Shown here: positions 6,601-64,000 of the stretch, in pieces
How the letters are laid out: every line of letters starts with the position of its first letter
Numbering within the stretch: position 1 is the stretch's first letter
Source: an uncultured Gemmatimonadota bacterium
Lineage (GTDB): Bacteria; Gemmatimonadota; CAZMKB01; CAZNLH01
DNA: 64,000 nucleotides
Direction of reading: 5' to 3'
Assembly: GCA_964573995.1 (NCBI GenBank)
Contig: CAZNLH010000001.1
Span: 112,810 to 176,809, forward strand
Translations under genes and position numbers: made by a program
The notes under the pieces: generated by a model
What the model was told of the DNA's origin: nothing
The model's input: only the letters and a program-made list of their open reading frames with translations
Database searches by the model: none

Positions 6601-6727
6601 CATCTTCCTGTGGAATCTTACGGGCCGGCATTTGGATAATTACAACGCTAATGGAATAGACAAGAAGGTCGTTCATATCACCTCGATTCAGGACTTGAGG
6701 GATCGACTGAGGTTTCTCAGGTTATAA
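3644..6727 (+). CDS. Single-polypeptide partner-switching regulator. Domain order: RsbW/SpoIIAB-like HATPase kinase, TM, extracytoplasmic sensor, TM, HAMP, PP2C (SpoIIE/RsbU) phosphatase, transposase-like HTH pair, C-terminal STAS-like domain.
   Basis: GTG start with RBS 'ggaaggg'. The N-terminus ('LAVDEGCTNIIRHAY...GGLGIFLMKKLMDEVEY') is RsbW-like. Two TM segments flank a ~170-aa sensor region. HAMP: 'ASWVRGMGEGSMEE...EMGEIAEAFNDMAYKF'. PP2C: 'GGDYFDF...VADVSGKGVPGSL...AGHNPLILY...DGLTEAMN...NDDITLVAIQ'. HTH: 'VSVKEACRRMRVSPSTYYRYKKRWEEEGLEGL' followed by 'RAKIMDIMQKHPEYGAKRICQELN'. The C-terminus ('KILLLDCSSLDQ...RNRGGDIFLWNLT') aligns with the STAS protein at 9869 ('LIIDLEDVDYISSAG...RKKGGDIKLARMT'). 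Confidence 0.75.
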   Translation: MALVKSNRRKLRIPADESYLAEVRDFITEIARSIGFETKDVSSIKLAVDEGCTNIIRHAYRDIPNGVIEILAVIKQRALSIVLIDHGKSFDFKKASDPNLQTYMKIGKKGGLGIFLMKKLMDEVEYHVTNRGNELWLTKRKSMEREYFLGFLPKRLSLKTKVTSLVSFIFSAAVLGGVGYLYRAQESEVESRIFSQGIEIVRNLSLNSWVDLSQDNDLNLASQVKNVAQESPLVSEAFITDMNNKIWAHSDIRKTFSTYLPPRHIELIGNPDHQTAIFSYTLPKGKRLVQISTPIRVEGPDGQDKQMVIGKANIVIPRDAIDNLVSEAQRRLKIIAILLIAFGNMGIFALSYLLMKPFQRLASWVRGMGEGSMEEALVLDTNDEMGEIAEAFNDMAYKFRKAQGSLVEKERLQQEVLVAQEIQHMLLPRSFPSVEGFDIASFYRAAKEVGGDYFDFVWVDPDTLGLVVADVSGKGVPGSLVMTMIRTTLRLEARGNKSASDVLSNVNRFVSDDIKKGMFVTMFYIILDSRRRKIDFASAGHNPLILYRNKTKKSYYLNPEGFPVGISMQNKRLFDESIHSDFLHLSQGDLLIAYTDGLTEAMNSEREQFGEERFLESIRRYAGLPVNEFVENIRKDVQEFTQGFPQNDDITLVAIQEKLQADSHLMQIRTRLINLVEKDGVSVKEACRRMRVSPSTYYRYKKRWEEEGLEGLRNRVERDHIAERHISIEDRAKIMDIMQKHPEYGAKRICQELNIEAYGFTKIPETRIYEELKKLNLNTEELRRRHVEKGHSSTKRLKPPGTPLLTIEGKVIDTGELDGVYKSHVSGEGEKKSMKGLPPMMDWDMEQPKDVIATNLPKDSGSPGVDGRKDRWKKNGIKRIPPKSPLWPSVEQRVKAGKLGITSQGQSASVSVSLPSHPIHPAVRSLPLIIHHHRELGDFIRKEVDRTVSLRKKILLLDCSSLDQDCRILWKEVVDIVEDFRNRGGDIFLWNLTGRHLDNYNANGIDKKVVHITSIQDLRDRLRFLRL

Positions 6728-43166: not shown

Positions 43167-45977
43167 ATGAATTACGGAAAGACATTGAATCTACCCAAGA
43201 CAAGGTTCCCCATGAAGGCGAGACTCGTGGAGAACGAGCCCTCTATACTGAAGAGATGGGGAGAGATGGACGCCTATGGCAGACTTCGCGAGAGACGCCA
43301 TGGGAGCGAAAAATTCATCCTTCATGACGGCCCGCCTTATTCCAACGGGCATATCCACCTGGGACATGCCCTCAATAAGGTCGCCAAAGACCTCATCGTC
43401 CGTTCCCGTTCCATGATGGGATATGACGCCCCCTACCTCCCCGGATGGGACAATCACGGGATGCCTATCGAGATGAACATCCTCAAGGAACTCAACACGG
43501 ACAGGAGGGAGATAGATCCACTGGTCCTCCGAAAAAAGTGTCGTGCATATGCAGGGCGTTTTGTCGCCATCCAGCGCGAGGAGTTTGTAAGGTTGGGGAT
43601 ATGGGGAGAGTGGGACCACCCGTACCTGACGATGGATCCCGCCTACGAGAAGATCGTCCTGAGGACATTCGGGGAAATGGTGGATAAGGGCTATATCTAC
43701 CGCGGGAAAAGGCCCATACATTGGTGCGCCCGGTGCGAGACCGCCCTGGCGGAATCGGAGATCGAATACATGGAGAAGGAATCGACCTCCATCCTGGTAC
43801 GCTTCCCGTTGCTCATGGACCCGGAGGGGGTGTTCCCCCGCGGCGTGCGCTCTTTCGTGCTTATCTGGACTACAACCCCGTGGACCATTCCCGCGAACAT
43901 GGCTGTAGTCGTGCACCCGAAGATCGATTATGCCGTGATAGAGACGGATCAAGGGGCCTACCTGCTCGCAGAGCGCCTCGCTCCGGTCGTCATGGAATCA
44001 ATGGGAATCGAGGAATACAAGGTCCTGAACCGGTTGAGAGGAGAGGAACTCAAGGGGCTGGTCTTCTCTCATCCACTATTCGACCGCGAGTCGCCACTGT
44101 ACATGGCCGATCACGTCAACCTGGAAGAGGGAACGGGGGTGGTCCATACCGCTCCCGGGCACGGGATGGAAGATTTCCTGGTAGGGAAGAAGGAGGGGTT
44201 GAAGATACTTTGTCCCGTAAACGAGAGGGGGATCTTCACTTCGGATGGGGGGAAGTACGAGGGGAAGGGGGTCGATGAGGTAAACATCGAGGTCCTTGAC
44301 GACCTGAAAGAGGCGGGCGCCTTGCTGCGTCGTGAGACGATCCGCCATTCCTATCCACACTGCTGGAGGTGCAAGAGCGCCCTCCTGTTTCGCGCAACCA
44401 CTCAATGGTTTTTTTCCATTGATCACGGGGGATTGCGGGAGATGGCGATGGATGCTATCGATCATGTGAAATGGGCACCAGAGTCGAGTAAGAACAGGAT
44501 CCAGGGAATGATACGCAACCGCCCCGACTGGTGTCTCTCCAGGCAGAGGGAGTGGGGGGTCGGAATCCCGATCCTCATCTGCAACGATTGTAATGAGCCC
44601 TTGCTAAAAAAGGAAGTGGTGGACCTCGTAGCGGAGAAGGTAGGCGAAATGGGATCGGATTGCTGGTTCACGCTGGATGCGGAGGATTTTCTGCCTGGTG
44701 ATCTCCGCTGCCCCGCGTGCGGGGGGTGCGACTTCCGGAAGGAGACCGATATACTCGACGTCTGGTTCGAATCGGGAAGTTCCCACCTGGCGGTCCTCGA
44801 GGGAAATGAGCGCCTTCAATGGCCGGCCGACATCTACCTTGAAGGCACCGATCAGCACCGTGGCTGGTTCAACACCTCGCTGATCATCTCCATGGTAGCC
44901 AAGGGGGCCCCGCCATACCGCCGGGTCCTGACGAACGGGTGGACACTCGACGCCGAGGGCAAGGCCATGCACAAACTCGAAGGCAACGTGGTCTCTCCGC
45001 TGGAGATTATCGAGAAACGCGGTGCCGACATACTGAGACTATGGGTATGTTCCAACGATTTCAAGAGCGATATCAGGTTCTCGGACAGCGCCCTGGACCA
45101 GGTAACCGAGATCTACCGGAAGATAAGGAATACCTGCCGATTCCTCCTGGGGAACCTCTACGATTACGATCCAGATGTGAACAGGGTAGCCTATGGTGAT
45201 CTGCTTGAGATCGATCAGTACGCCCTCCACCTCCTGGAGGCCTTCAAGGGGAAGGTATGCCTTGCCTACGAGAACATGGAATTCCACTCGGCTTACCACA
45301 CTATCAACGAGTTCTGCACGAATATATCCTCCTTTTACTTCGATGTTCTTAAAGACCGGTTATACACGTTCTCTGCAGATTCACCTGGACGTCGATCGGC
45401 TCAAACGGTCCTGCACGAGATCATTCAGACACTGGTGAGGGTCACGGCCCCGATACTTCCATTCACGAGCGAGGAGGTCTGGGGCTACCTTTGCGCCGAC
45501 GACGGGGAATCGATCCATTTCCAATTGTTCAAGGACCCTGATGAAGCGCACTTGAGGCCGGATCTCGAAGAGAAATGGAAGACACTGTTGATCCTCCGCG
45601 GAGAGGTACAGAAGGGCCTGGAAGCCGCGAGGAAGAACGGGGACATAGGTTCATCCCTGGAAGCGGCCGTGGAATTGATCGCCTCGCGGGAAGACCTCCA
45701 GGCATTGATCGAAGATTACCAGAGAGATCTACCTTCCCTGTTCATCGTCTCCCAGGTCCACGTAAGGGAAGGGGAAGGGGGAGAAGAAGGAGGGGAGTGG
45801 TCGGTTTCTTCCGAACTTCCCCTTCGGGTCCTGATCCGAAGGGCGGACGGGGTGAAGTGTGTCCGCTGCTGGAACTATTCGGTAGATGTGGGAAATTCAT
45901 CCGAGCACCCGGATTTGTGCGGCCGGTGTGTTGGAATGCTTGCACAGGAGATGAGATATGACAAAGAAAAAAGGTGA
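43167..45977 (+). CDS. ileS: Isoleucine--tRNA ligase.
   Basis: 'PYSNGHIHLGHALNKV' (HIGH), 'KMSKS'-region context, editing domain, and a C-terminal Zn finger 'CVRCWNY...CGRC'. Confidence 0.95.
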   Translation: MNYGKTLNLPKTRFPMKARLVENEPSILKRWGEMDAYGRLRERRHGSEKFILHDGPPYSNGHIHLGHALNKVAKDLIVRSRSMMGYDAPYLPGWDNHGMPIEMNILKELNTDRREIDPLVLRKKCRAYAGRFVAIQREEFVRLGIWGEWDHPYLTMDPAYEKIVLRTFGEMVDKGYIYRGKRPIHWCARCETALAESEIEYMEKESTSILVRFPLLMDPEGVFPRGVRSFVLIWTTTPWTIPANMAVVVHPKIDYAVIETDQGAYLLAERLAPVVMESMGIEEYKVLNRLRGEELKGLVFSHPLFDRESPLYMADHVNLEEGTGVVHTAPGHGMEDFLVGKKEGLKILCPVNERGIFTSDGGKYEGKGVDEVNIEVLDDLKEAGALLRRETIRHSYPHCWRCKSALLFRATTQWFFSIDHGGLREMAMDAIDHVKWAPESSKNRIQGMIRNRPDWCLSRQREWGVGIPILICNDCNEPLLKKEVVDLVAEKVGEMGSDCWFTLDAEDFLPGDLRCPACGGCDFRKETDILDVWFESGSSHLAVLEGNERLQWPADIYLEGTDQHRGWFNTSLIISMVAKGAPPYRRVLTNGWTLDAEGKAMHKLEGNVVSPLEIIEKRGADILRLWVCSNDFKSDIRFSDSALDQVTEIYRKIRNTCRFLLGNLYDYDPDVNRVAYGDLLEIDQYALHLLEAFKGKVCLAYENMEFHSAYHTINEFCTNISSFYFDVLKDRLYTFSADSPGRRSAQTVLHEIIQTLVRVTAPILPFTSEEVWGYLCADDGESIHFQLFKDPDEAHLRPDLEEKWKTLLILRGEVQKGLEAARKNGDIGSSLEAAVELIASREDLQALIEDYQRDLPSLFIVSQVHVREGEGGEEGGEWSVSSELPLRVLIRRADGVKCVRCWNYSVDVGNSSEHPDLCGRCVGMLAQEMRYDKEKR

Positions 45978-51848: not shown

Positions 51849-52994
51849 TCCGTGGCCAATATAACCTGCAATGAAGTTGGCAAGAGGGCTCCTTCCCTCC
51901 TGATCGGCTGTCTGTTTCTCTCGCACCTCTTCCTCCTGCCGCAACCTGGATGGTCGGGGGAATATCATTCCTATCGAAATGGTACGCTGTATTGTGATGA
52001 ATGCCACCTGTCCTTAGTCTCCCCTAAAGACCTTCCGAGTACGGTACCTTCCGCCGCAGGTAAGCCTGCAGGATGGGCGGGCAACCCTTACCTCCTGAGA
52101 TATGATGGCAATGAAGTCTGCCTGTCATGCCATGACGATAACCCCGGGGCGGTGGACGTGGTTGGATTCAACAGGGGGGAGAAGCCGGGGATCGTGAGGG
52201 AGGCGGGTGCGCTCAACATGGTTTCCGGCGGTTATCCATACAGTGAAGAAAACGGCCACACTCTTGGCCTGGAAACTCCTGCTCCGGGAAGCGATCCCCA
52301 ATGGATACCTTCCGGCGGCCTGAAGTGCATCGATTGCCATGATCCACACGGGGAGAACCCAAACGGGAATTCCTATCGAAACCTGGTCGCTACCCCAGGC
52401 AACACCCCCTACCCCGGTATACTGGTGACGTATTCCTCGGGGACGAATGACCCAGGCAGCGATGTCTTTGTCCGCTGCATGGGAGGCTATGACGTGTCTG
52501 ATGTGGACTTCAATGAGCCATCCCCCGGCACTTCGGCAATGGCGGCGTTCTGTGGCGGATGCCACACCGATTTCCACGGCTCCAAGGGCGGACCGGAAGT
52601 AGGCGGAGCATCGGGAGTTGGCTGGATCCGACACCCCTCGAGTGATGCGGACATCGGCCACCTGGGCGGGCGCCATTCGCGCCGCGAGGTTTTTGCGGGG
52701 GAGTGGTCGAGAAAAGAAGACTTCGTCAAGGTCATGACAGGCACGGGGAACTGGAGGCCGCAAAGCGCCTCCGAGGTTGTCGATCACACGCCGACCTGCC
52801 TTACCTGCCACAAGGCACACGGCAACCGAAACCCGTTTGGGTTGATATTCATGGGCAACAATGGGCCTGTTAATGAAGAGGGTACGCCGGGCGGCAGTTA
52901 CACCGACCTGTGCCGCCAGTGCCATGTCCAGTCGCTTCGGAGAGATCACAATAGGCAAGCCGGGCGCTTCGCGGGCCGTCGGCCCGGATCTTGA
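51849..52994 (+). CDS. OmcS-family hexaheme c-type cytochrome (candidate nanowire subunit), paralog 1.
   Basis: Six CxxCH sites in OmcS-like order and context: 'YHSY..CDECH', 'CLSCHDD', 'CIDCHDPHGE', 'FCGGCHTDFHG...WIRHPSS', 'CLTCHKAHGN', 'DLCRQCHVQ'. Recalled G. sulfurreducens OmcS has 'FHSGGVAECEGCH', 'CLNCHQ', 'CSSCHDPHGK', 'WCANCHTDIHN...LRHPAG', 'CLSCHRAHASG', 'CNKCHAKD'. GTG 51849 follows GGAGG, and a signal peptide is present. Confidence 0.7.
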   Translation, partial: SVANITCNEVGKRAPSLLIGCLFLSHLFLLPQPGWSGEYHSYRNGTLYCDECHLSLVSPKDLPSTVPSAAGKPAGWAGNPYLLRYDGNEVCLSCHDDNPGAVDVVGFNRGEKPGIVREAGALNMVSGGYPYSEENGHTLGLETPAPGSDPQWIPSGGLKCIDCHDPHGENPNGNSYRNLVATPGNTPYPGILVTYSSGTNDPGSDVFVRCMGGYDVSDVDFNEPSPGTSAMAAFCGGCHTDFHGSKGGPEVGGASGVGWIRHPSSDADIGHLGGRHSRREVFAGEWSRKEDFVKVMTGTGNWRPQSASEVVDHTPTCLTCHKAHGNRNPFGLIFMGNNGPVNEEGTPGGSYTDLCRQCHVQSLRRDHNRQAGRFAGRRPGS

Positions 52995-53018
52995 CTCCGG
53001 ACTCCCATTATGTGAATG

Positions 53019-54152
53019 CTACTGATCGACTCTCGCAAGATAGTGGCACTGGTCGCATCCCACGTAATTCACGGTACCCTCGACGGGGAATGTCATGGAA
53101 AACGCCTGATCCGAGCCGTGGGCCTTGTGACAGGAGAGGCAGAAGACCCCGTTGGTAGATGCGTCCACCACGAGCCCCCCACCGTATTCCGACGCGCCGT
53201 CCACAACAAACGGCACCCTCTCTGTTCCGATGAATCCGGACCCGCTGCCGAGTTCCCAGTGGGCGGGGTTTGTCGACCCCCTGTCTTCCCCCTGGTCGAT
53301 GTGGTTCGGTGAGTTTCGTTCGCTGTCATAGGTGGGATGCCTTGAGTGAATACCGTTTCCATCCGGGTCTATGTAAGATTCTCCTGAAAAGATGTGATGA
53401 CAGTCCAGACAGATATTGGATGCCTCGCGCAACTCCTCTGTGTTCAAGGTGCCGTAAGAGACGTGTTCGCTCTCGTACTTATCGAGCCCCGAGGCCGACG
53501 GGTCCACGAGAAGACCAATCGGGGGTGTTCCATCGGGATCTGACGCCCACTGCAGGTTCCTTGGATTACCATTGCCGTGTGGATTATGGCAGTCAATGCA
53601 TGTCACCTTCTGATCCGCAGGGTCACCCCAGTGGCATCGCATGCATAGTTCCCAGCCGCTCGGAAGGTCCCTTCCAAGGTCATGTCCATTGATGTTCTGC
53701 ACCTCAGGTTCCCCGAAGAATCCAGCCGACCGCTCGGTCAGACCGTTCACGTCGTTTCCTACTACATCGGGTACGCCCGACATGTTATCGTGGCATAACA
53801 GGCAGAGGTCGAGAGGATCTGGTGCAAGCAAAAGTTCCGGGTTTGGGGTGCCTTCCCATGGAAAGCCCGAAATGGCCCCTTCTCCTGAGTAGCCACCCTC
53901 ATGGTTGTGTTGCATGCTTGCATGCATTACGTGACAGTCCGTACAAACCAGGGTCTCACCGAAATGATACGGAGTGTATCCGCCCACCTGTGGCTCATCT
54001 TCGGTCCCCCGTCCCCCCGTCTGCTTATGGATCTGGTAACCTAACAACTCTTCCCGACCCATCTGGCCTGCATTCAACTGGGCCACAGACAATTGGAAGA
54101 TAAGGGCCGAAATTACAGAGAGACAGACAATTACATCCTTGCCCGCAGACAT
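53019..54152 (-). CDS. OmcS-family multiheme c-type cytochrome, paralog 2 (7 CxxCH).
   Basis: 'CTDCHVMHASMQ', 'CLLCHDN', 'CMRCHWGDP', 'CIDCHNPHGNGNP', 'CLDCHHIFSG...IHSRHPT', 'CLSCHKAHGSD', 'CDQCHY'. Signal peptide 'MSAGKDVIVCLSVISALIFQLSVAQ'. RBS 'aaaggagga'. Confidence 0.65.
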   Translation of the reverse strand: MSAGKDVIVCLSVISALIFQLSVAQLNAGQMGREELLGYQIHKQTGGRGTEDEPQVGGYTPYHFGETLVCTDCHVMHASMQHNHEGGYSGEGAISGFPWEGTPNPELLLAPDPLDLCLLCHDNMSGVPDVVGNDVNGLTERSAGFFGEPEVQNINGHDLGRDLPSGWELCMRCHWGDPADQKVTCIDCHNPHGNGNPRNLQWASDPDGTPPIGLLVDPSASGLDKYESEHVSYGTLNTEELREASNICLDCHHIFSGESYIDPDGNGIHSRHPTYDSERNSPNHIDQGEDRGSTNPAHWELGSGSGFIGTERVPFVVDGASEYGGGLVVDASTNGVFCLSCHKAHGSDQAFSMTFPVEGTVNYVGCDQCHYLARVDQ

Positions 54153-54296
54153 GTTTCCTCCTTTCATTACGTCAGCGCGAGGCGTCTTCTAAGTTGAATC
54201 GCTGCTATCTCCTCAACGAGGGGCGATGCGAGGGGTAAGGAGGGGGAGAATCGGGGAGTACTCGAAGTCGGCCTGGGGTCTGGACCTTACCGCGGT

Positions 54297-57200
54297 CTAC
54301 TTGAAGTCGGCGCCTACACGATGACACTGGATGCAGAGATCCCTCCGCTGGTCATGGGTAAGCATCTTCGAGTAGTCACTGGAATGGGGATCGTGACATG
54401 AAGCACATGTCATCCTTTCTCCGGTGCGGGGATCGATCGCCTCACCACCTACGGGGTGTATGTGTTTCATGTCCACCGCATCCTTGTGGCACCCGTAACA
54501 CAAATCGTTCACATTGACCGGAAGGAGGTACCGAGCCTTGGAATCATGCGGGTCATGGCACTTGGTGCATCCTTCCTCTAAGGGCGCGTGGAGGTTTTTC
54601 CCGCCAAGGATTCGTGCCCTGTCGTGGCAGGTAAAACAGGTCTCATCGCCCTCCCTCGAGAGGAGGTACTTGCCGAATCCCATGTGAGGATTGTGGCAAT
54701 TTGTACATCCGCCACCCCGCGACAAGGCCTTGTGGAGGTGAGGCTGGTCCAGTTTCTTGCGAAAATCTTTATGACAGCCGAGACACAGTTCCTGGCCCTT
54801 CAACCTTGTGCCAAAGTTCAACTTGGAGGTATGACAAGTCAGGCATCCCCCCCTAAAGGGCTCATGGACTACTGGGTATAGGAGTTTTTTCCCGCCCTTT
54901 GGGACGGAATGCGGGTCGTGGCAGCGGGTACAGTCTCCCTTCCCCACGGGGAATCCGGAATGTGCCGCCTCGAACGCAGGCTCCCCGGCATCATGACAAC
55001 TCAGGCAGAGGGTTGCCCCCTTCTTTTTCAAGAGGTATTCGTTGCTCGATGTGTGGGAATCGTGACAATCCCCGCAATCGCCATCCTTATATGGTGGGTG
55101 AAGGGCCTCCGTTTTGTAACCCTTCCCGAGTCTCTCATGACAACCGAAACACAGGGAAGGCGTGCCTTCCTTGAGTAGATTCTTCACCGCTCCGGAGTGC
55201 GGGACATGGCAACTGAGGCATTCGCCCTTTGCAACGGGGGCGTGGCTGAGCGAGGTTCTCGTTATACCCCTCATCCCCTCGTGGCACCGGTAGCACAATT
55301 TTTCCCCAGGAGCACGGAGTAATTTCTCGTTGCTCGATGCATGGGGGCTGTGGCAGGCCACACAATTCCCTTTGGTGACCGGGTCGTGAACCACCTCGGC
55401 ACCGGTAAAATCGTCGTCATGACACTGTAGGCAGAGTGCACTCCCCTCTTCGACCAGGCGCGCGGGCTCCCCCTTGCGCTTGGGTTCCACATGGCATGCG
55501 TCACACAACTTATCCTCAAAGGGAGGATGAAGATTCTTTCCCAACAACTTTGGCGATGCCGAGTTGTGAGGATCGTGGCAGTCTATGCAATTCGTCCCTT
55601 CAACCGAGTATCCGAGGTGCGCATTCCTGATGTTTTCGCTGTCCACCTGGTGGCAACTCTGGCACAACTTCTTCGGTTCCGCTACGAGGTTTACGGAGAA
55701 ATCCGAGGCATGAGGGTCGTGGCAGGTCAGGCACCCCTTTTCTGTAGTCAGAGGCTGGTGAACATTCCCGGTAAGATAGTCATCCCTGTCATGGCACTTA
55801 AGGCACAAGTCCGTTCCCTTCGCCTTGAGCAGACCAGGCCCCTCGCCACCGTGTGGATCGTGGCACCCGCTGCAATTTCCCTCTACCACAGGTGTGTGGA
55901 CAGAGGGCTTCGTCATGAGTTCTTCGATCTCAGAGTGGCAGGATATGCAGAGTTCACCCTGATCCTTGACCAGGAGCCCCTTGTTGCCCGCCGCATGGGG
56001 ATTGTGGCAATCGGTACAGGCTCCTTCGACGGCGGCGGGATGAGCACCATCGCCTGAAATCTTCTCCCCTATATCTTTATGGCACTGCGTACAGAGATCA
56101 TTTCCCCCTATCTTCAACATGGAATTACCGGTCGAGGCGTGGGGTGAATGGCAGGCCGAGCACTCACCCAATTCGAATGGGCTGTGCTGATTTACCTCCT
56201 TGAGCCTGTCCACCACGTCACCATGACACTTCAGGCATATTTCCTTTTGAGGCCCAACCAGCAGGGACGGCAACTTGGAACTGTGCGGCCTGTGACAGGA
56301 CAGGCATCCCGGGTCAAGGACCGGCGGATGAGTCCCCTCCCCCTTATCGATCGCCTCGTAGATATCCTTGTGACAGGAACGACACAGATCCGGCTTCGGG
56401 GACCTCAGCAGCGGACTCGTCCCGGAACCGTGAGGGTCGTGGCAACCTGTGCAATTACCCTCCTTTAGAGGGGGGTGAACCGATTTGTCATGAAGATCCT
56501 CTTCCCTTTCGGGGTGACAAGTAAGGCACAACTCGCCCTCGTCCTCCTTCAATAGCGCCTTTCTCTTGGACACATGAGGATCGTGACAGTCGGTGCACTC
56601 TCCATCGGATGCAGGCGGGTGGATCGATTCAGACCTGAGGGACGCCTCGATCTTGGAGTGACAGGTAAGGCAGATATCCTTCACGTCCTGCCTTAGATGG
56701 ACACCCCCCTCCCCGACCGGCTCCTCGTGGCAAGCGGTGCAGTCTCCCTCGAGCAGGGGTTCATGTGCGCTCTCGTTCAGTAATGCGGGCCTTGAAGATG
56801 CGTGGGGGTTGTGACAACTGTCGCATGACAGTTCCTTTATATCGAATCCCTTGTGTCCCTTGGATTGTGCAATATCCTCTTTACCATGGCACTTTCTGCA
56901 GAGCGTCTTCTCATCAGAGACCAGGAGGCCCCCGTACGATGAAGCATGGCTCTGATGGCAAGCCCCGCAGTCCTTATCGGCGAAGGGCTGATGCAGATGG
57001 GGTTTCTCGAGTTCCCTGGCGATGTCCTCGTGGCATGAAGTGCAGATGCCCTTTCCGCCGATCGATTTCAGGAGGGATGCATTGTCTGAGGCGTGAGGAT
57101 CGTGGCAGGCGATACAATTGCCTTCCTCGACAGGTGAGTGGACGACCTTCTTGCCGGCCTCTTTTTTGATATCCTCGTGACAGTTCAGACAGAGATCGGG

Positions 57201-57422
57201 CCCCGTCCTCTTCAAGGCGAGTTTCTGCTTAAAGCCGTGTCGGGCATGGCAGGCGTCACACTTTCCCCTTTTGACGGGGTCATGAATGATCTCCTTAGAC
57301 TGGAAGGCCTTCCGTGCCTGTTTGTGGCAATCATAGCAAGTCTTACGTTGAGCAATGAGGGGCAGGACCAGTAGGTTCTCCACGGTAAAGAACAGGAAGA
57401 GCGCCCGCCTCGTGCTGCCCAT
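54297..57422 (-). CDS. Giant periplasmic multiheme cytochrome c (~42 CxxCH), a polymer of cytochrome-c7/c3-like triheme repeats.
   Basis: Signal peptide present. Regularly spaced CxxCH motifs (~42 counted by eye) in repeating 'C..CH.PH.S......L....G..LC..CH' units across the whole length. The ATG overlaps the upstream gene's stop (TAATG). Confidence 0.85.
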   Translation of the reverse strand: MGSTRRALFLFFTVENLLVLPLIAQRKTCYDCHKQARKAFQSKEIIHDPVKRGKCDACHARHGFKQKLALKRTGPDLCLNCHEDIKKEAGKKVVHSPVEEGNCIACHDPHASDNASLLKSIGGKGICTSCHEDIARELEKPHLHQPFADKDCGACHQSHASSYGGLLVSDEKTLCRKCHGKEDIAQSKGHKGFDIKELSCDSCHNPHASSRPALLNESAHEPLLEGDCTACHEEPVGEGGVHLRQDVKDICLTCHSKIEASLRSESIHPPASDGECTDCHDPHVSKRKALLKEDEGELCLTCHPEREEDLHDKSVHPPLKEGNCTGCHDPHGSGTSPLLRSPKPDLCRSCHKDIYEAIDKGEGTHPPVLDPGCLSCHRPHSSKLPSLLVGPQKEICLKCHGDVVDRLKEVNQHSPFELGECSACHSPHASTGNSMLKIGGNDLCTQCHKDIGEKISGDGAHPAAVEGACTDCHNPHAAGNKGLLVKDQGELCISCHSEIEELMTKPSVHTPVVEGNCSGCHDPHGGEGPGLLKAKGTDLCLKCHDRDDYLTGNVHQPLTTEKGCLTCHDPHASDFSVNLVAEPKKLCQSCHQVDSENIRNAHLGYSVEGTNCIDCHDPHNSASPKLLGKNLHPPFEDKLCDACHVEPKRKGEPARLVEEGSALCLQCHDDDFTGAEVVHDPVTKGNCVACHSPHASSNEKLLRAPGEKLCYRCHEGMRGITRTSLSHAPVAKGECLSCHVPHSGAVKNLLKEGTPSLCFGCHERLGKGYKTEALHPPYKDGDCGDCHDSHTSSNEYLLKKKGATLCLSCHDAGEPAFEAAHSGFPVGKGDCTRCHDPHSVPKGGKKLLYPVVHEPFRGGCLTCHTSKLNFGTRLKGQELCLGCHKDFRKKLDQPHLHKALSRGGGCTNCHNPHMGFGKYLLSREGDETCFTCHDRARILGGKNLHAPLEEGCTKCHDPHDSKARYLLPVNVNDLCYGCHKDAVDMKHIHPVGGEAIDPRTGERMTCASCHDPHSSDYSKMLTHDQRRDLCIQCHRVGADFK

Positions 57423-57916
57423 TATTTCGACCCTCCCTTGTTCCTGATCACCGTCTCCTTTCCACCCCCCCGGTTTCCATCAGGTTTCTCTTCTCCAGCC
57501 CCCTGAGCCGTTCCGGTAGGCGAGACCTTGTAATCCTTTAGTTCGAAGGAGAGGAGTGATCTCCTGAAAAAATGGGGGGCACCCTTTCCACGGAAGGCCC
57601 ACGTTTCATCCACCTTCTTGTCCTTGTCGTATACAATCACCCGAACAGCGGGGTTGTTTAACTGGTCGGATCGAGAAATGACCTCTCCCGTCTTCAGGTT
57701 TACGGCAAAGTCTGGGATGAATTCCACCGCCTCGGCGGAATAATCCGTGTCAGAGAGGTAGAATCTCTCTCCCAGTCTCACGGTGTGTTCCTCGCGAAAG
57801 TCCTTGTATACCCTGTGGGTAGCGACCAGTGTAACGTTGTCGATCTTTATTGTCCCGGCTATTGCCCGGGATATGACAACTGTAGAAATCAAGATGAGAA
57901 AGACCGTGTACTTCAT
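57422..57916 (-). CDS. Hypothetical periplasmic protein (signal peptide) inside the cytochrome operon.
   Basis: 'MKYTVFLILISTVVISRAIAG'. ATGA overlap with the upstream gene and TAATG overlap with the downstream cytochrome. Confidence 0.45.
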   Translation of the reverse strand: MKYTVFLILISTVVISRAIAGTIKIDNVTLVATHRVYKDFREEHTVRLGERFYLSDTDYSAEAVEFIPDFAVNLKTGEVISRSDQLNNPAVRVIVYDKDKKVDETWAFRGKGAPHFFRRSLLSFELKDYKVSPTGTAQGAGEEKPDGNRGGGKETVIRNKGGSK

Positions 57917-58551
57917 CGCATCTCCTCCATTCTATGAAGGGATTCCCTCCTCAGGGATTTAACGACCTCGCGAGCCATGACCTCGGTCAGCCTGTCGAGG
58001 GATGTTATCCTCCCGATCCCGAAGACCTTTTCTGTGTCGTTGCCGTTCCTGGAGTAGGATGAGGCCCAGAGGATCTTTCCGCTGCCGGCGTCGACCATCT
58101 TGACGAGCAATGATATGAAGGGGACTTCGGTGACGTTGTAGCCCTGCACCTGCCTGATCCCGTATTCAAGGACAGTCCCCTCGATGAGTGCGGACACATT
58201 CAGATCGGATGCGATCTTCCGGGTCTGCTCACTCGAGAGTTCCGAGATGAAACGAATCCTTTCAGAGGTGAGGACACCCTCTACTTCCCCGGGATCGACC
58301 ACCGAAAACTTACCTGTTTTCAACAACTCTACCGTAAAGATATCGTGAACGTGCCTGGCGGCGCCCTCCGCATCCGTCAGGTTATCGAACGGAAGTACGG
58401 CGACACGAATCTCACCATGGAGTTTGAATTCATTGCTCGTGTATACCCTTGGACTGGGCGCGCACCCGGCGACTAAAGCGGTTGCGAGGAAAACAGACAA
58501 CTTCCTAAATTTCCTGTCCTTGAGATTCATGGCGCATAATACGTGGATCAC
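57913..58551 (-). CDS. Lipoprotein with a CsgG/LpoB/DUF799-like N-terminal fold, paralog A.
   Basis: Lipobox 'LVAGC'. Motif 'EIRVAVLPFDNLTDAEGAARHVHDIFTVELLKTGKFSVVDP'. Confidence 0.45.
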   Translation of the reverse strand: MIHVLCAMNLKDRKFRKLSVFLATALVAGCAPSPRVYTSNEFKLHGEIRVAVLPFDNLTDAEGAARHVHDIFTVELLKTGKFSVVDPGEVEGVLTSERIRFISELSSEQTRKIASDLNVSALIEGTVLEYGIRQVQGYNVTEVPFISLLVKMVDAGSGKILWASSYSRNGNDTEKVFGIGRITSLDRLTEVMAREVVKSLRRESLHRMEEMR

Positions 58552-58578
58552 ACCCGGAACGAGGGTGATACCCTCTCC

Positions 58579-59226
58579 TCAATATCCTATCCGGTCGACT
58601 ATGTCTTTACACACCTTCTGGGTCATCTCTCCAAGGGTATACGTCTCCCCGAGGCTGATAATTGGGAGGTGGGGTCCTCCCTTCCTCGTGTGGCTGATCA
58701 TCCACACGACCTTTCCTGTCTCGACATCGATCAATTCAACGTCGACGGTAACGAGCGGGTACGATGTCTGTCCTATCCTCACCATCTCGTAATCTCGAAC
58801 CGTTCCCGTTATGATTCCCTGGACTTCGGCTTCGCTCCCCAGTTTCTTGATATTGTCGAGTTTCCACTCTCCTCCTGAATCTATTCCGCCGCTCAATATC
58901 CCCCTCGCCTTTTCGCGGAACTGCCCCGGCTCCACGACATCGAAACTCTTCTTGACCAGGAGTTCTGTAATCAGCGCATTGGCGACCTTCTCACCGGCCA
59001 GTCGGTCGTTGGTTAGGTTCTTAAAGGGCAAGACACCGATGGTCTCATAGTACGAGATATCGACGTCCTGGTGTATAAAGGTCCTCGGCCCACCGCAACC
59101 CATCAAACAGGCCGGGAGCAGGCAGGTCAACGATATCGTTATACGGCGCCTTAAGGTGGATACGATAATCTCTCTGGCGGCCGGCGGACCTTTCTCGCCT
59201 CTTCTCTGGTGTTCATCGGAATTCAT
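58579..59226 (-). CDS. Lipoprotein with a CsgG/LpoB/DUF799-like N-terminal fold, paralog B.
   Basis: Lipobox-like 'CLMGC'. Motif 'GVLPFKNLTNDRLAGEKVANALITELLVKKSFDVVEP', paralogous to the gene downstream. Confidence 0.45.
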   Translation of the reverse strand: MNSDEHQRRGEKGPPAAREIIVSTLRRRITISLTCLLPACLMGCGGPRTFIHQDVDISYYETIGVLPFKNLTNDRLAGEKVANALITELLVKKSFDVVEPGQFREKARGILSGGIDSGGEWKLDNIKKLGSEAEVQGIITGTVRDYEMVRIGQTSYPLVTVDVELIDVETGKVVWMISHTRKGGPHLPIISLGETYTLGEMTQKVCKDIVDRIGY

Positions 59227-59230
59227 AGCG

Positions 59231-60874
59231 CTAAAACCACTTCACAAGATTGATCCCCAGGTTGCTTATCCTTCTGTTTCCGGAGATCATCTGGGTATCA
59301 AGGCTCAAACGAAGGTTCGCGCGTTCCCTGAGCTTCAGGTTCATCTGGAAGAGGAGCCCCTCCTGGGCCCCGGAAAAGGACGTCGGCTGTGTTAAGGCCT
59401 CCCCATTGGCCCTGGACCGGGAATTTCTCCGGTTGTATATCAGGGAGAGACCCGAGCCGCCCGAAAAGAGGTAGTTCAGTGTCCCCGTAACGAGGTAATC
59501 ATGACGCCCGAAGACCCTGCGGTCGTCTTCCCTCGCTACGGTCCAGAGGGTCGTCAGGCGTGGAGCCGGCTGATAATTGAGGCTCATCTGCAAAGTCGAT
59601 GATTGGGTGTCTAACCAGGGGACCTTTTCTCCGTATGATAGTGTCCGGAGGCCGAAATCGAGCATCAGCCTTCCGGTTGGGACGGTGCGAAGATCGAGCG
59701 TCCGCCGTACCTGGAATCGTCCTGTTGTAACGCCGGGGTTTTCCGATTGTGTGATATTGTAATCGGAATTCAGGCTTATGCCGCGATAGACCTGCGCAAC
59801 CACGCTGAACAGATACCCATGTGAAGGAAAACTGCCCTCCTTGCTCCTGATGATGTATGTCCTTGTGAACGCCGCCCTCCCTTCGATCCTTTCACGAATT
59901 CTACCGTGAAGGCGTGCCTCGGCACGGAGGAAATCGGACGTCGATTCCCCTCCTTCCTGCATTATCCGGCGATAATCCCTGGAACCAGATATCGAGAGAT
60001 AATCGGTCGGCATGAACCTCATACCAGAGACTACCTCGGACAGGGAGGAGTTCTCGCTGCCCTGCCCCTCTCTCCTTATGTAATTGCCGAGGAACGAGGT
60101 GTAGCCTGACAGGCGGGCCAGCGGCTTGATCGAAGCCCGGGCACTCATGTTATTGACCATAGACTTGCCGATGAATTCCGGCCCTCCCCGATCGTCCGTG
60201 TATAGATAATCATAGTCCACCGTGAGGCTTGCCCGCCGGGGAAAGGGGATACGGGCACCAAGCCCCCCGCTTATATCCCGTATCCTGCGATTACCACTAT
60301 TGTCGACCCTGTCGACCATCTTCCTCTCCCTTAGAAGTGATCGATAATTCATGAACTTGTATTCGTATGTCATGTTGACCAGCCTGTCCACCTTGAGCAT
60401 ATCGACCCTGCCAGCGCCTGTCCCTCCACCCACCCTCTCGTTCCGGTCATATGTAACGCTGGTCACCGGTGCCTTGGGAGGCGACACGACAAGGTTAAAC
60501 CGCCTGCCCCTTCCGTGCAGTGCCGCCGGGCCGGAAGCGCTGTTGAGCCTATAGCGCGGGGAGAGATCGCCGGTGAATGTGTAATACTTCCCTGTCATGT
60601 TGGTGCGCCACCGCTGGCGGATGGCCCCTCCGGGCTGCGTACCTGCCGAATACCGCTGGAGAAAATAACTCAGGGTCAAGAGGTTTTTTGTGAAAAGGGC
60701 ATCCGCCACGGAAATATCCAGTTCCTGGTCAAAGTTTTGACTCCTCGTGTCCTCGAATCTGGTGCTCAGGTAGTCGAGGTTGAGCCGACCCCTGAAGTTC
60801 GCCTGAGAGAACAGCCCGGCGGGCTCCATGGAGAACGCCAGTAAGGCCGCAGAGGCAGACAACAGCCTCCACAT
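59231..60874 (-). CDS. Outer-membrane beta-barrel protein, a candidate porin or secretin partner of the cytochromes.
   Basis: Signal peptide 'MWRLLSASAALLAFS'. Alternating amphipathic beta-strand pattern throughout. C-terminal '...LGINLVKWF' has the OMP terminal aromatic. The track ORF extends to 60985. Confidence 0.55.
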   Translation of the reverse strand: MWRLLSASAALLAFSMEPAGLFSQANFRGRLNLDYLSTRFEDTRSQNFDQELDISVADALFTKNLLTLSYFLQRYSAGTQPGGAIRQRWRTNMTGKYYTFTGDLSPRYRLNSASGPAALHGRGRRFNLVVSPPKAPVTSVTYDRNERVGGGTGAGRVDMLKVDRLVNMTYEYKFMNYRSLLRERKMVDRVDNSGNRRIRDISGGLGARIPFPRRASLTVDYDYLYTDDRGGPEFIGKSMVNNMSARASIKPLARLSGYTSFLGNYIRREGQGSENSSLSEVVSGMRFMPTDYLSISGSRDYRRIMQEGGESTSDFLRAEARLHGRIRERIEGRAAFTRTYIIRSKEGSFPSHGYLFSVVAQVYRGISLNSDYNITQSENPGVTTGRFQVRRTLDLRTVPTGRLMLDFGLRTLSYGEKVPWLDTQSSTLQMSLNYQPAPRLTTLWTVAREDDRRVFGRHDYLVTGTLNYLFSGGSGLSLIYNRRNSRSRANGEALTQPTSFSGAQEGLLFQMNLKLRERANLRLSLDTQMISGNRRISNLGINLVKWF

Positions 60875-60881
60875 TGAGATT

Positions 60882-63032
60882 CTACCATCTCTCCTGCTCA
60901 CTTTCCCTCGTCTTGACGGCCTCTCTCTCTCCCTCAGACGGGTGATGCACGTTAAGGCTGTTTGAGGACGAATAATCACGTCCATGGCAGTCGTAACATG
61001 AAGCCTCTCTCCCTGAGTAATGTTCCTGTACCTCGCTCGGGATGGTATTCATGATGATTCCTTCTACTGAACGCGAGCCCGGTACTCCGTCTGCAGGGAT
61101 GTGACAACCGAAGCAGAAACGGCGTGTCTGCTGCGGATCGTTCAGGGTATCAGTCAACCCGCTCCAACCGTCTCGCTGATCACTGATCAGGAAGCCGTTT
61201 GGCTGAACGCCGTCATGTCCCAATGACCCGTGCGGGTTGTGACAATCGTAACATGGAAGTTTGTCACCCTTCTGGACGTAATTCGGCCAGGACAGTGCTA
61301 TGTCGTCGGACATCTTGATCTGGTGCCCTGCCCGATCGTCATTATTGATCCTCGAGTCATAATAATCTGATATCCTCCGGTTTTCTTCATCCATGCCGAC
61401 CGGCCCGTCGGGGCCATGGCACCGGAAACATAGTTCGTAATGCTCCGGAGGACCCACTTCTCCCGACCCGCTTATCTCCAAGTAAGGATACAGTAGCAGG
61501 TCGAAGGGGTTATCCGTAACGTGCGGGTCGTGACAATTGATGCAGAGCCCATTTCCGGCCTGGTCGCGAAGCGGCATGTCGCGGTCGTTCCTGTGGGGGG
61601 AAAAGTACCTCCCATCACCGAAAGTCCTCTGGTCGGTATATGCAACCATTCCGGGCCACCTCTTGCGGTTCTTGACACCTGTAATTCTTTCTCCACCGCT
61701 ATTGTACTCGAAGTATCCGGGGGAGGAGGACCCTTCCGGCAGCCGGTCTGTCTCCTGAGCCGGGTATCCCGTGGGGATGTCTCCGTGGCAACCGCCCCTG
61801 CCGGATGGATCGAAACAGAGATTGTTGGTGTTCTCACAGAACAGCCCGTAAGGAAATGGACCGCCGGTGGGATTTCCGTCTACGCTGGCGTGCATATAAT
61901 GGCACTGGGAACACTCTCCCACGGTGGGTGGGTCGGTGACCACCCTTTCCACTCCGCTCAGTGCGTCGCCATGTTGACTATCGAGGAATATCCTGCCGTA
62001 GTGGCATTGCGTGCACGTCTCTGACATCCTCTGCCCGTCTTCGTGGGGTAAAGTCTCGCTATCGTCATAGATCAGGAGGTACTTGTGCGAGGATCCATGT
62101 GCCTTGTGGCATGAACCGCAAAACGCTTCATTGTCGCTGTCGGCCGACGAGCCCGGGACCTCGGTTGGCGAAACAACCGCAACACGCGATACAAGCCCTG
62201 AAAACCAGCCATCGCCTCCAAGGTGACCGTTGCGATAGCCATCCGACATCGTCACGTCTCGTGTTGGGTGACGTAACCACTCGTTCCCAGGTCCAGTATC
62301 ACCGCTGGGGCTTCCGCCCATTTCGTGACCTCCCCCAGGGCCGTGAAACTCTCCATGACATCCCCCGCACCACCTGGATAAGCCGACCTCGTTTCCTCCG
62401 GACATCAACCGCCTGTAACGGATGTTCTCTACCGAGTAGCGGATAGATGGTGGGGTCGTCTCTATCTCCTGCACCGAGGAAGATCCGTCGTAGACCTGGC
62501 CCCGTGTTACCGTGACGAGGGCCTGGCCCTGCCCGCCAGGGTTCTCCACTAAATTACGGTAATACTGATTTCCATGAGGATCATGGCAGGATGTACACGT
62601 CAGTGTGGACGACCATGCTCCACCGGTATATCCGGGTGGACTCTCGCCCGACCCGAGGGAGTGTCGGTTTTCCTCGACTATCTGGCCGCCGCTCGTAAAA
62701 CTTCCAGCGGCCGATTCGTATCCGACAGGGTCCTCTACGTTGGGGGCGTTAGGGTTGCTGCCGTCATGACAATTGAGGCACAACTGATTCGTCGTCTGAT
62801 CGATGATCAATCTCTCAAAGGGCCCGCCGGGTTCCGATCCGGGTGGGATTTCCCCGTTTTGCGAGTAGTGCATTGTATGACAATCCGAGCAGAGGAGGCC
62901 ATCGTGTCCCAACTCGCTATCGGCCGACAGGCCTTTGCATCCCAAGGCTACATACCAAAGGAGCATAGTGAAGGACCAGGCGAATACCCAGTTGTATGTG
63001 AAATAAGGGTGAAAGGATGATCCGTGAATCAT
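60882..63032 (-). CDS. Doubled OmcS-family cytochrome: two tandem hexaheme OmcS-like modules (12 CxxCH), possibly a lipoprotein.
   Basis: Module 1: 'CSDCHTMHYS', 'QLCLNCHDGSNP', 'CTSCHDPHGNQ', 'WCGGCHGEFHG...WLRHPTRD', 'CGSCHKAHGSS', 'CTQCHYG'. Module 2: 'CSQCHYMHAS', 'CINCHDPHVTDNP', 'CFRCHGPDG', 'CYDCHNPHGS', 'CFGCHIP', 'CYDCHGRDYS'. The N-terminal hydrophobic segment ends in '...VALGC'. Confidence 0.7.
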   Translation of the reverse strand: MIHGSSFHPYFTYNWVFAWSFTMLLWYVALGCKGLSADSELGHDGLLCSDCHTMHYSQNGEIPPGSEPGGPFERLIIDQTTNQLCLNCHDGSNPNAPNVEDPVGYESAAGSFTSGGQIVEENRHSLGSGESPPGYTGGAWSSTLTCTSCHDPHGNQYYRNLVENPGGQGQALVTVTRGQVYDGSSSVQEIETTPPSIRYSVENIRYRRLMSGGNEVGLSRWCGGCHGEFHGPGGGHEMGGSPSGDTGPGNEWLRHPTRDVTMSDGYRNGHLGGDGWFSGLVSRVAVVSPTEVPGSSADSDNEAFCGSCHKAHGSSHKYLLIYDDSETLPHEDGQRMSETCTQCHYGRIFLDSQHGDALSGVERVVTDPPTVGECSQCHYMHASVDGNPTGGPFPYGLFCENTNNLCFDPSGRGGCHGDIPTGYPAQETDRLPEGSSSPGYFEYNSGGERITGVKNRKRWPGMVAYTDQRTFGDGRYFSPHRNDRDMPLRDQAGNGLCINCHDPHVTDNPFDLLLYPYLEISGSGEVGPPEHYELCFRCHGPDGPVGMDEENRRISDYYDSRINNDDRAGHQIKMSDDIALSWPNYVQKGDKLPCYDCHNPHGSLGHDGVQPNGFLISDQRDGWSGLTDTLNDPQQTRRFCFGCHIPADGVPGSRSVEGIIMNTIPSEVQEHYSGREASCYDCHGRDYSSSNSLNVHHPSEGEREAVKTRESEQERW

Positions 63033-63036
63033 TTAA

Positions 63037-64000
63037 TCATTGCTTATTGTTAGGTCTATCCGTTACCGGCACCTTGAAGGCCTGAAACCGCGCAATTCCC
63101 TTTTCCAGGATAAACAACCTCCCTCTTGATCCGAACGCGATATCGAGTGGGAAAAAGAGTTTCCCTGGCTCGGTCCCCATTTCACCATACTCTTTCACGA
63201 AGGTTCCATCCTCCGAGTATACCTTTACAGCATGCTGGAAAGTGTCCACGATCCACAACTTGCCCCTTGGTCCAACCGCTCCTGCTATGGGGAACGAGAA
63301 TTTACCCGCGCTTGAACCGTGAAGACCAAAGTGATTGACGAGGCGCCCATCCCGGCCTATTACATGAACGGCATATCCCCTCGAAGAGATCAGGATCGTT
63401 TCTCCTCCACGCGCTCCCTGCACTACATCTTGGAGTGCCACCCCCTCATTCTCCTCCTTGGGGAAGGTGTAAAACAGGCCGGTATTTCTACTGTCCATAT
63501 CCAGCCGCATAACGTCCCTCCCGAAACGACCCGCGACGAGGAGCCTGCCCCCCGAGTCAAAGCCCATACCGCCGGGGGAAAATCGTCCCCTTGACGATGA
63601 CTTCAGGTCTATGGGCTCCATGCCCACTTGGTCCCTGCCCACAGACCATATCCTGGGCATGTCCTGCTCCCCGATGACGAGTGTGCCGTTCCCGGCGACG
63701 GCCAATTTAAAGGGAATCCTCAGCGTCCTGTCCAGGCGCAACTTGTGCAGGTACCGGCCTTCCTGATCGTAGACGATTACCTGGCGCCTACCCCTGTCAG
63801 AGATGTAGACCTCGTTGCGAATGGTGTCGACTGCAATAGCGCCGGGCTTCAAGAGCGGCTCATCATGTTCCGCTTCTTCTACCGAGAATAAGAAATCCCA
63901 CCCCGACCCGCCCCCGGTTCCTCCTCCAGCCGTAACGCCACTACCCGCCAGGATGAACAACAGTAGAATCAGCACGAGCCTTACGGCCTCTCTTTTCCTC
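63037..64000 (-). CDS. NHL-repeat beta-propeller protein. The 5' end probably lies beyond the window.
   Basis: Repeated NHL-like blades: 'AIAVDTIRNEVYISDRGRRQVIVYD', 'GMGFDSGGRLLVAGRFGRDVMRLD', 'LDIAFGSRGRLFILEKGIARFQAF'. The ORF is open to the window edge upstream of GTG 63975. Confidence 0.6.
   Translation of the reverse strand, partial: RKREAVRLVLILLLFILAGSGVTAGGGTGGGSGWDFLFSVEEAEHDEPLLKPGAIAVDTIRNEVYISDRGRRQVIVYDQEGRYLHKLRLDRTLRIPFKLAVAGNGTLVIGEQDMPRIWSVGRDQVGMEPIDLKSSSRGRFSPGGMGFDSGGRLLVAGRFGRDVMRLDMDSRNTGLFYTFPKEENEGVALQDVVQGARGGETILISSRGYAVHVIGRDGRLVNHFGLHGSSAGKFSFPIAGAVGPRGKLWIVDTFQHAVKVYSEDGTFVKEYGEMGTEPGKLFFPLDIAFGSRGRLFILEKGIARFQAFKVPVTDRPNNKQ

Follow-up and report, generated by a model that had tools for sequence, protein, structure and literature searches.

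Does the group of multiheme cytochrome genes near the end of a 64,000-nucleotide stretch of DNA from an uncultured Gemmatimonadota bacterium (contig CAZNLH010000001.1, positions 112,810 to 176,809; the whole stretch is called the window below) encode an extracellular filament of the OmcS type together with its own outer-membrane machinery, as an earlier note made from the letters alone had proposed? We consider it fairly probable that the locus is a divergent osc-type cluster for the assembly of extracellular multiheme cytochromes, because the neighbours of its cytochrome genes are homologous to, and ordered like, those that surround true omcS. At the level of sequence, the comparisons show an osc-type cluster centred on a divergent family related to OmcS; filament formation by the OmcS-like subunits is what we infer. 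The genes are listed here, together with one that lies past the window end, where the sequence was read from the Joint Genome Institute (JGI) metagenome contig Ga0256747_1000038 (L002), which is 85,337 bp long and includes the window.

51852..52994, forward strand: P1, a hexaheme OmcS-like cytochrome of 380 amino acids (aa), in divergent orientation at the cluster end
53019..54152, reverse strand: P2, a heptaheme OmcS-like paralogue of 377 aa, the final gene of the operon
54297..57422, reverse strand: a 42-heme periplasmic multiheme cytochrome of 1041 aa with c7/paired-CXXCH repeats
57422..57916, reverse strand: a predicted secreted protein of 164 aa, coupled on both sides (ATGA, TAATG)
57913..58500, reverse strand: lipoB, a lipoprotein of 195 aa with an LVAGC lipobox and a CsgG/TolB_N/LpoB-like fold
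58579..59226, reverse strand: lipoA, a PelC/LpoB-like lipoprotein of 215 aa with an LMGC lipobox
59231..60874, reverse strand: an outer-membrane beta-barrel of 547 aa with about 28 strands and no plug
60882..63032, reverse strand: P3, a 12-heme protein of 716 aa, a fusion of an OmcS-like module (residues 44-345) and a second module, P3C (residues 350-716)
63037..64000 and beyond, reverse strand: an NHL-repeat beta-propeller, 324 aa as called, with its start just outside the window
L002:3631-4659, about 67179-66151 if the window were extended: P0, an OmcS-like hexaheme cytochrome of 342 aa with NHL genes on either side

The neighbours were compared with 78 loci carrying true OmcS orthologues (50-67% identity), which were obtained in a genome scan with OmcS and belong to Geobacterales, Nitrospirota, Myxococcota, Rokubacteria, Acidobacteriota and one Bacteroidota metagenome-assembled genome (MAG). 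In tblastn searches of these loci, the NHL gene has a counterpart in 47 of them, immediately upstream of omcS (best 4e-20), which is the position that the earlier note had given for it. Counterparts of lipoA (57 loci, best 1e-24) and lipoB (56 loci, best 1e-22) are found downstream of omcS, and the 42-heme protein is matched in 37 loci about 9 kb downstream (best 1e-151). The barrel has no tblastn match in any of the 78 loci; its relationship was found by hhalign, as described below. Five neighbour gene families are thus common to the window and the true omcS loci, in the same order; the outer-membrane genes of the cluster are homologues of omcS companions. The G. sulfurreducens omcS locus is not among the 78 (the best orthologue is 67% identical), and its region may be masked or absent in the genome collection scanned. 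The Bacteroidota MAG (L033, DATDQD010000064.1) contributes an 8-kb contig whose true OmcS orthologue is 55% identical to G. sulfurreducens OmcS; this is either a real occurrence of canonical OmcS in the Fibrobacteres–Chlorobi–Bacteroidetes (FCB) group or a binning error.

The order of genes in these loci is illustrated by Geomonas diazotrophica (L025), where an NHL-like gene, OmcS, an OmcS-like paralogue and a 466-aa Lactonase/YNCE-type propeller are followed by a 750-aa protein (no Pfam match), a 194-aa LpoB/GNA1162-like lipoprotein, a 373-aa lipoprotein, a 607-aa peptidyl-prolyl isomerase (PPIase) and a multiheme cytochrome. This order agrees with the published osc cluster. There, GSU2501 encodes OscC, GSU2495 OscI and GSU2494 OscJ; OscD is a protein of the propeller kind, OscE-G have a role in secretion and OscH has one in folding (Shen et al. 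2025, as cited by others). According to the same source, again as cited by others, the osc genes are linked experimentally to nanowire secretion, and the machinery is “widespread and ancient” (Cell Chem Biol 32:239). The eight-gene block GSU2500-2493 always accompanies the GSU2501 type.

The AlphaFold2 (AF2) model of the barrel has a predicted local distance difference test score (pLDDT) of 90.6 and 28 long strands; its family is small, with 44 representatives among 1.84 billion proteins. A hidden Markov model (HMM) of the 750-aa OscE-position family gave no significant match to the barrel, and hhalign of the two families gave 98.8% with E 5.5e-17 over 506 columns. The OscE-position proteins carry an insert of about 200 residues that is missing in the 547-aa barrel, which is a compact, distant homologue of them. 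The lipoprotein lipoB (Pfam CsgG, 3.8e-7) matches positions 212-377 of the OscG-position HMM at E 9e-32 and is homologous to the 373-aa lipoprotein in its C-terminal domain. The same domain is also matched by lipoA (Pfam LpoB, 1.3e-5), which is a homologue of the OscF-position lipoprotein of about 194 aa. In PDB, lipoA comes closest to PelC structures (5t0z at 1.4e-3, followed by 5t11 and 9h80_C). The NHL gene (Pfam NHL, 7e-6) and the two further NHL genes past the window are counterparts of the gene that precedes omcS rather than of OscD. The 42-heme protein has exactly 42 CxxCH sites, matches Paired_CXXCH_1 at 9.6e-233 in 22 stretches, and is homologous to the giant cytochrome that true omcS loci have downstream, in the place of OscI/OscJ. 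The barrel, both lipoproteins with their lipoboxes and the NHL protein are what the earlier note took them to be, and the three cytochrome reading frames and the protein of about 42 hemes that it listed are present as well.

The 164-aa protein occupies the slot that the PPIase OscH has in osc clusters. It has no Pfam or NCBIfam match, no counterpart in the 78 OmcS loci by tblastn and no match to the OscG-position HMM; an orthologue of 161 aa stands at the same position in Latescibacterota (L083, 3e-21). The idea that lipoB and the 164-aa protein represent a split OscG was rejected, since the latter is unmatched and lipoB corresponds to the C-terminal, not the N-terminal, half.

The second line of evidence concerns the cytochromes themselves. 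The motifs CH(T/V)MH, CL(N/S/L)CH, CxxCH(D/N)PHG, CGGCH(T/G)(D/E)FH followed by W(I/L)RHP, C(L/G)(S/T)CHKAHG and a C-terminal CxxCH occur in the OmcS order, with six CxxCH in P0, in P1 and in residues 44-345 of P3 (12 in the whole of P3). P2 has the same order plus an extra CMRCH, seven sites in all, and at the fourth position it reads CLDCHH followed by SRHP instead of CGGCHTDFH followed by WxRHP. The first motif of P1 is CDECHLSL, so that the second histidine of CHxMH is missing. The statement that the proteins track OmcS “almost motif for motif” holds for the motifs and their order apart from these exceptions in P1 and P2, but it is an overstatement in view of the low overall identity and of the single-sequence searches without an OmcS match given below.

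In pairwise BLASTP with OmcS (a query identical to 6ef8_A), P1 aligned over hemes 3-5 (1e-7) and the N-terminal half of P3 over hemes 1-5, collinearly (3e-7); P2 gave fragments only. P2 is nonetheless a clear paralogue of P3 (5e-15), as is P1 (9e-24). A set of 5.8 billion proteins contains 636 homologues of P1; the named ones, labelled “cytochrome c3 family”, “cytochrome c553” or “hypothetical” in their sources, are from Latescibacterota, Zixibacteria, Glassbacteria, Eisenbacteria, Planctomycetota and Acidobacteriota. A family profile built from 43 of these homologues has 6EF8 (OmcS) as its sole significant match in PDB (E 1.4e-6; the next is 0.025). The two align collinearly, beginning at the mature N-terminus (FHSGG against YHsGa) and continuing through heme 5. 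The profile matches P0 at 1.8e-145 (490 bits, the best match), P1 at 7e-138, residues 44-345 of P3 at 3e-46 and residues 62-356 of P2 at 3e-24; true OmcS orthologues are matched at 1e-10 to 1e-5, and the family does not lie nearer to OscC-type than to OmcS-type sequences. In a fold search with an AF2 model, OmcS was likewise the sole match. The kinship with OmcS proposed earlier is therefore borne out by both profile and fold: P0, P1, P2 and the N-terminal half of P3 are distant OmcS homologues, beyond CxxCH look-alikes. P0, whose N-terminus MKRLSSAFLALVFAVAFTAWLYA/GDYHTGSTLNCAECHVMH has a clean signal peptide, is the most canonical member because it is the best match to the profile, and it is probably the main subunit.

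In OmcS filaments, the interfacial heme is ligated by a histidine of the adjacent subunit. We take this ligand to be His16, acting on heme 5 of the neighbour. In the profile alignment, all histidines conserved in the family outside CxxCH map onto OmcS H2, H16, H110, H147, H247, H257 and H335 (the pairing of H257, in the RHP motif, is taken from the P1-OmcS BLAST alignment), and the GH, RHP and KAHG contexts are common to OmcS and the family. The His16 equivalent is H41 in P0, H77 in P2 and H55 in P3; P1 has L55 instead. The pattern CxxCHxxH at the first heme is present in 117 of 117 OmcS-type N-termini of the fetched loci and in 106 of 112 full-length family members (95%), and the six exceptions are exactly P1 and its five closest orthologues. 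P1 therefore stands for a conserved sub-clade with a specific loss of the His16 equivalent. The search for the inter-subunit histidine that the earlier note had suggested thus has a divided outcome: P0, P2 and P3 possess the residue, which could ligate a heme of the neighbouring subunit, and P1 does not.

P3 was described earlier as a doubled OmcS. A simple tandem duplication was considered and rejected: in residues 373-716 the family profile yields non-collinear fragments only, and the C-terminal half belongs to a separate family. Residues 350-716 are 54% identical to a separate 399-aa gene of Latescibacterota (1e-131), and nearly all of the best 120 homologues of P3C stand alone: they measure about 370-400 aa, have signal peptides and belong to Latescibacterota, Krumholzibacteria and Gemmatimonadaceae. 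In the window lineage one reading frame covers both modules, and three relatives (about 70% identity) also read through the junction. Relatives have a gene of at least 675 aa or, on a low-coverage contig, a pair of 173 and 540 aa, a split resembling that in the JGI gene call. This call for P3 (60882-62321, 479 aa) begins at an internal methionine, and the 237 residues upstream of it carry heme sites 1-4 of the OmcS-like module; because the family profile matches there at 3e-46, this part is coding, and the true reading frame is 716 aa. P3 is a conserved fusion of an OmcS-like hexaheme module with a compact hexaheme cytochrome of a separate family. No P3C counterpart was found in the OmcS loci, and the P3C profile had no significant match in PDB. 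By hhalign, the last 190 or so residues of P3C pair with the heme 1-5 region of the OmcS-like family (97.8%, E 7.6e-13); we treat P3C as only remotely related to OmcS because CxxCH motifs inflate profile-profile scores. Of 101 P3C homologues, 89 have CxQCHxxH as the first heme motif.

The cluster is conserved beyond the window organism. A complete Latescibacterota genome (CP070677.1) has a core of an OmcS-like protein of 339 aa, the 399-aa cytochrome, a 545-aa barrel, an LpoB-like and a CsgG-like lipoprotein, a 161-aa protein and a 42-heme cytochrome of 1048 aa. On an Acidobacteriota contig (L086), a cytochrome of the P1 family occurs together with a genuine OscE-type protein (2e-73), CsgG-like and LpoB-like lipoproteins, a PPIase, an NHL protein, a propeller and two cytochromes of 25 and 16 hemes; this pair is represented in the window by the single 42-heme protein, and the contig bridges the window-type and Geobacter-type clusters. 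Examples from Zixibacteria and Planctomycetota have partial context only. The full layout is kept in two close relatives of the window organism. In one close relative (L087:2846-5929), the giant cytochrome is reduced to a 191-aa fragment followed by small unannotated reading frames, between P2 and a 163-aa gene, which may be a disruption of or an insertion in the cluster.

We propose that the products act together as follows. All of them would leave the cytoplasm through Sec and receive their hemes in the periplasm, and the 42-heme protein would conduct electrons across this compartment. By analogy with PelB/PelC and with the proposed OscEFG channel, the barrel and a ring of lipoproteins would form the outer-membrane passage and anchor. 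Outside the cell the OmcS-like subunits, most likely P0, would polymerise head to tail, the CHxMH histidine of each (OmcS His16) ligating heme 5 of its neighbour. Because the N-terminal histidine would complete the heme 5 of the neighbouring subunit, one end of such a filament should have an unused histidine and the other an incompletely ligated heme 5. More speculatively, P1 may cap the former, the heme-1 end, as it lacks this histidine; P3 may fit the other end as a base subunit, since P3C, a compact OmcS-related adaptor with a CxxCHxxH of its own at the first heme, already takes up the heme-6 side in cis. A polar filament of differentiated subunits with P0 as the shaft, P3 as the base (leading into the barrel and the 42-heme wire) and P1 as the cap, comparable to a pilus with its distinct parts, is an unlikely conjecture in this full form.

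Several points weigh against a filament-forming osc-type cluster, and we collect them here. The identity to OmcS in the BLASTP alignments is about 23-25%. Single-sequence phmmer searches of PDB with P1, P2 and P3 found no OmcS match, so that an alignment-based profile was needed; P2 gave weak OmcE-type matches only (7tfs_A and 9yuq_N, the latter taken as an OmcE homologue from a preprint; E above 0.2). CxxCH motifs inflate the scores when profiles of multiheme cytochromes are compared, the AF2 model of the cytochrome is of moderate quality (pLDDT 70.5), and the Foldseek template modelling score is just 0.37. The barrel is linked to OscE by profile-profile comparison only, and lipoB corresponds to the OscG-position protein in the C-terminal domain alone. 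No operon gene has a Rotamase domain by Pfam or NCBIfam, as an OscH-type PPIase would (such a gene is present in both the Geomonas and the Acidobacteriota loci), and the operon has no 466-aa Lactonase/YNCE-like propeller of the OscD type, only NHL propellers of about 320-335 aa. The Osc letters used here are inferred from gene order and three anchors, oscC, oscI and oscJ. Within Geobacter, OmcS alone among its paralogues is known to form wires. Finally, the numbering of His16 and its pairing with heme 5 are those reportedly given by Wang et al. 2019. The filament with its own outer-membrane machinery that the earlier note envisaged is thus upheld as regards the homologous companion genes, while the polymerisation itself is inferred only.

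A porin-cytochrome conduit of the MtrCAB or PCC3 type without any filament is the alternative that survives best, and we regard it as possible but doubtful. In it, the 42-heme protein crosses the periplasm into the 28-strand barrel, the OmcS-like proteins act at the cell surface as terminal reductases or oxidases, either as monomers or as oligomers, and the lipoproteins and NHL proteins only stabilise the complex. The barrel is consistent with it, a very long periplasmic cytochrome is known from PCC3, and NHL propellers accompany outer-membrane cytochrome clusters without filaments in D. ferrophilus. The presence of four different OmcS-like paralogues, one of them without the inter-subunit histidine, would also suit such a conduit, as would the restriction of known polymerisation to OmcS in Geobacter and the tie between an OmcS-like module and a second cytochrome in P3, which could reflect a fixed complex. 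What speaks for the osc-type reading instead is that the barrel, lipoproteins, NHL protein and 42-heme cytochrome are homologous to, and in one order with, the true omcS neighbours, which are the genes tied to nanowire secretion by experiment (Shen et al. 2025, as cited by others). The inter-subunit histidine is kept in 95% of the family, a PelC-like lipoprotein points to polymer export, and neither an MtrA/DmsE decaheme nor an MtrB barrel nor an MtrC/OmcA decaheme is found by Pfam or NCBIfam, with no similarity to these proteins beyond the heme motifs.

That the likeness to OmcS is convergent or driven by motifs, the proteins being generic periplasmic c3/c7 cytochromes (for example, a respiratory reductase module) amid unrelated envelope proteins, is very improbable and already largely refuted: Pfam and NCBIfam do return only the generic Paired_CXXCH, Cytochrome_C7 and c3 families, phmmer against PDB is empty and the homologues are labelled as c3 or c553 cytochromes, but OmcS is the only significant profile match and the only fold match, the family and OmcS have in common seven histidines outside the motifs as well as the GH, RHP and KAHG contexts, five companion gene families including the OscE-related barrel are common with omcS loci, and the cluster is conserved across phyla.

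Returning to the osc-type cluster and its arrangement, the order in the window is NHL, P3, barrel, lipoA, lipoB, 164-aa protein, 42-heme cytochrome and P2. The genes from 64000 down to 54297 had been described as one operon coupled by ATGA/TAATG junctions. The tight packing is there, but genuine overlaps exist at two junctions only, lipoB with the 164-aa gene (ATGA) and the 164-aa gene with that of the 42-heme cytochrome (TAATG). The rest are separated by gaps of 4-8 nucleotides (nt), by about 78 nt from lipoA to the called start of lipoB, and by 144 nt ahead of P2, which has its own ribosome-binding site (AGGAGG). For P1 the start given earlier, 51849, is one codon early; the called start is a GTG at 51852. 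The limits of the cluster had to be moved: the window edge truncates it and leaves out P0, which is the best candidate for the main subunit. The NHL reading frame is still open at the window end (its 324 aa come from the contig gene call), and the cluster extends about 5 kb further with P0 and two more NHL genes, in the order NHL, P0, second NHL and then the NHL gene cut by the window.

As to the host, an S8 peptidase at the contig end (L002:3-1988) carries a type A sorting domain of the type IX secretion system (T9SS; TIGR04183, 31.8 bits against a cut-off of 23), and the protein at 6-1748 of the window has a PorU/T9SS-cargo-like C-terminus, so the description of the host as T9SS-bearing is confirmed. 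Both the T9SS cargo domains and the taxa in which the nearest cytochrome homologues occur suggest the FCB group; the T9SS-type domains are the sole direct evidence for an FCB-type host. The host is less unexpected than was proposed earlier, since true OmcS already occurs in Nitrospirota, Myxococcota, Acidobacteriota, Rokubacteria and a Bacteroidota MAG, and the osc machinery has been published as widespread. Two other genes of the window can be mentioned. The isoleucyl-tRNA synthetase (43167-45977) has close relatives, at 70-73% identity, only on metagenome contigs; the best named relatives, from several phyla, are at about 50-53%, so that named genomes represent this lineage poorly. A 1027-aa protein (3644-6727) combines HATPase_c_2 (anti-sigma-factor kinase-like), HAMP, a SpoIIE phosphatase and a transposase-type helix-turn-helix in an unusual architecture.

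OmcS-type nanowires and the osc genes are already known and were reported as widespread in 2025, so the locus mainly extends a catalogue. It adds a distinct and poorly annotated sister family whose identity to OmcS is about 24%. This family goes together with a slimmed-down machinery of the osc kind in candidate phyla of the FCB type (Latescibacterota, Zixibacteria, Krumholzibacteria, Eisenbacteria, Gemmatimonadota) and in the window lineage. The general Pfam and NCBIfam models recognise it only as a multiheme cytochrome, no OmcS-specific HMM, such as the FeGenie one, having been applied. In the literature searched, no link of OmcS-type nanowires to Latescibacterota, Krumholzibacteria or Eisenbacteria was found beyond FeGenie-style gene calls, the taxa surveyed by Shen et al. 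2025 not having been compared. The new details are the conserved P3 fusion and the loss of the subunit-linking histidine in P1 and its orthologues alone; both bear on how cytochrome filaments are anchored, fed with electrons and terminated, and lead to testable predictions. If true, the shaft, base and cap arrangement would be a first genetic handle on nanowire anchoring, electron charging and termination.

We therefore compare the locus with the known systems, from the more remote to the closest. The PelB/PelC and CsgG export machines also consist of a beta-barrel with small lipoproteins of the PelC/CsgG/LpoB fold, and PelC forms a ring beneath the PelB barrel. PelC is the best PDB match of lipoA; however, the similarity is marginal (E 1e-3), and the cargo here would be a heme protein rather than a polysaccharide or curli. 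With MtrCAB, PCC3 of Gallionellaceae, DFE_448-465 of Desulfovibrio ferrophilus and the omcE cluster, the locus has in common a large barrel, a long periplasmic multiheme cytochrome and extracellular cytochromes, and with the latter two also beta-propeller proteins. It differs from these systems in that its extracellular cytochrome is of the OmcS type, and from Mtr and PCC3 in the PelC/CsgG-like lipoproteins, which neither of them has.

G. sulfurreducens OmcS (GSU2504; 6EF8/6NEF) and its paralogues OmcT, OscC/GSU2501 and OmcJ are about 23-25% identical to the window family. Compared with OmcS, the family protein lacks about 60 residues and has large deletions in its loops, and the locus has four paralogues, including the heptaheme P2, the 12-heme fusion P3 and P1 without His16. 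The osc cluster (GSU2500-GSU2493) is the closest system. Relative to it, the window locus has neither the PPIase (OscH) nor the 466-aa OscD propeller, its barrel is of 547 instead of 750 aa, and its OscG counterpart is the C-terminal domain only; it adds a secreted protein of 164 aa, carries a single 42-heme protein that merges OscI and OscJ, and has three NHL genes. The NHL gene, the OmcS-like gene, the large outer-membrane protein, the LpoB/PelC-like lipoprotein, the second lipoprotein and the giant multiheme cytochrome are collinear in the two. The locus is, then, a variant of a known system, distinguished by its own subunit family, a slimmed machinery, a Rosetta-stone fusion and a paralogue without the linking histidine.

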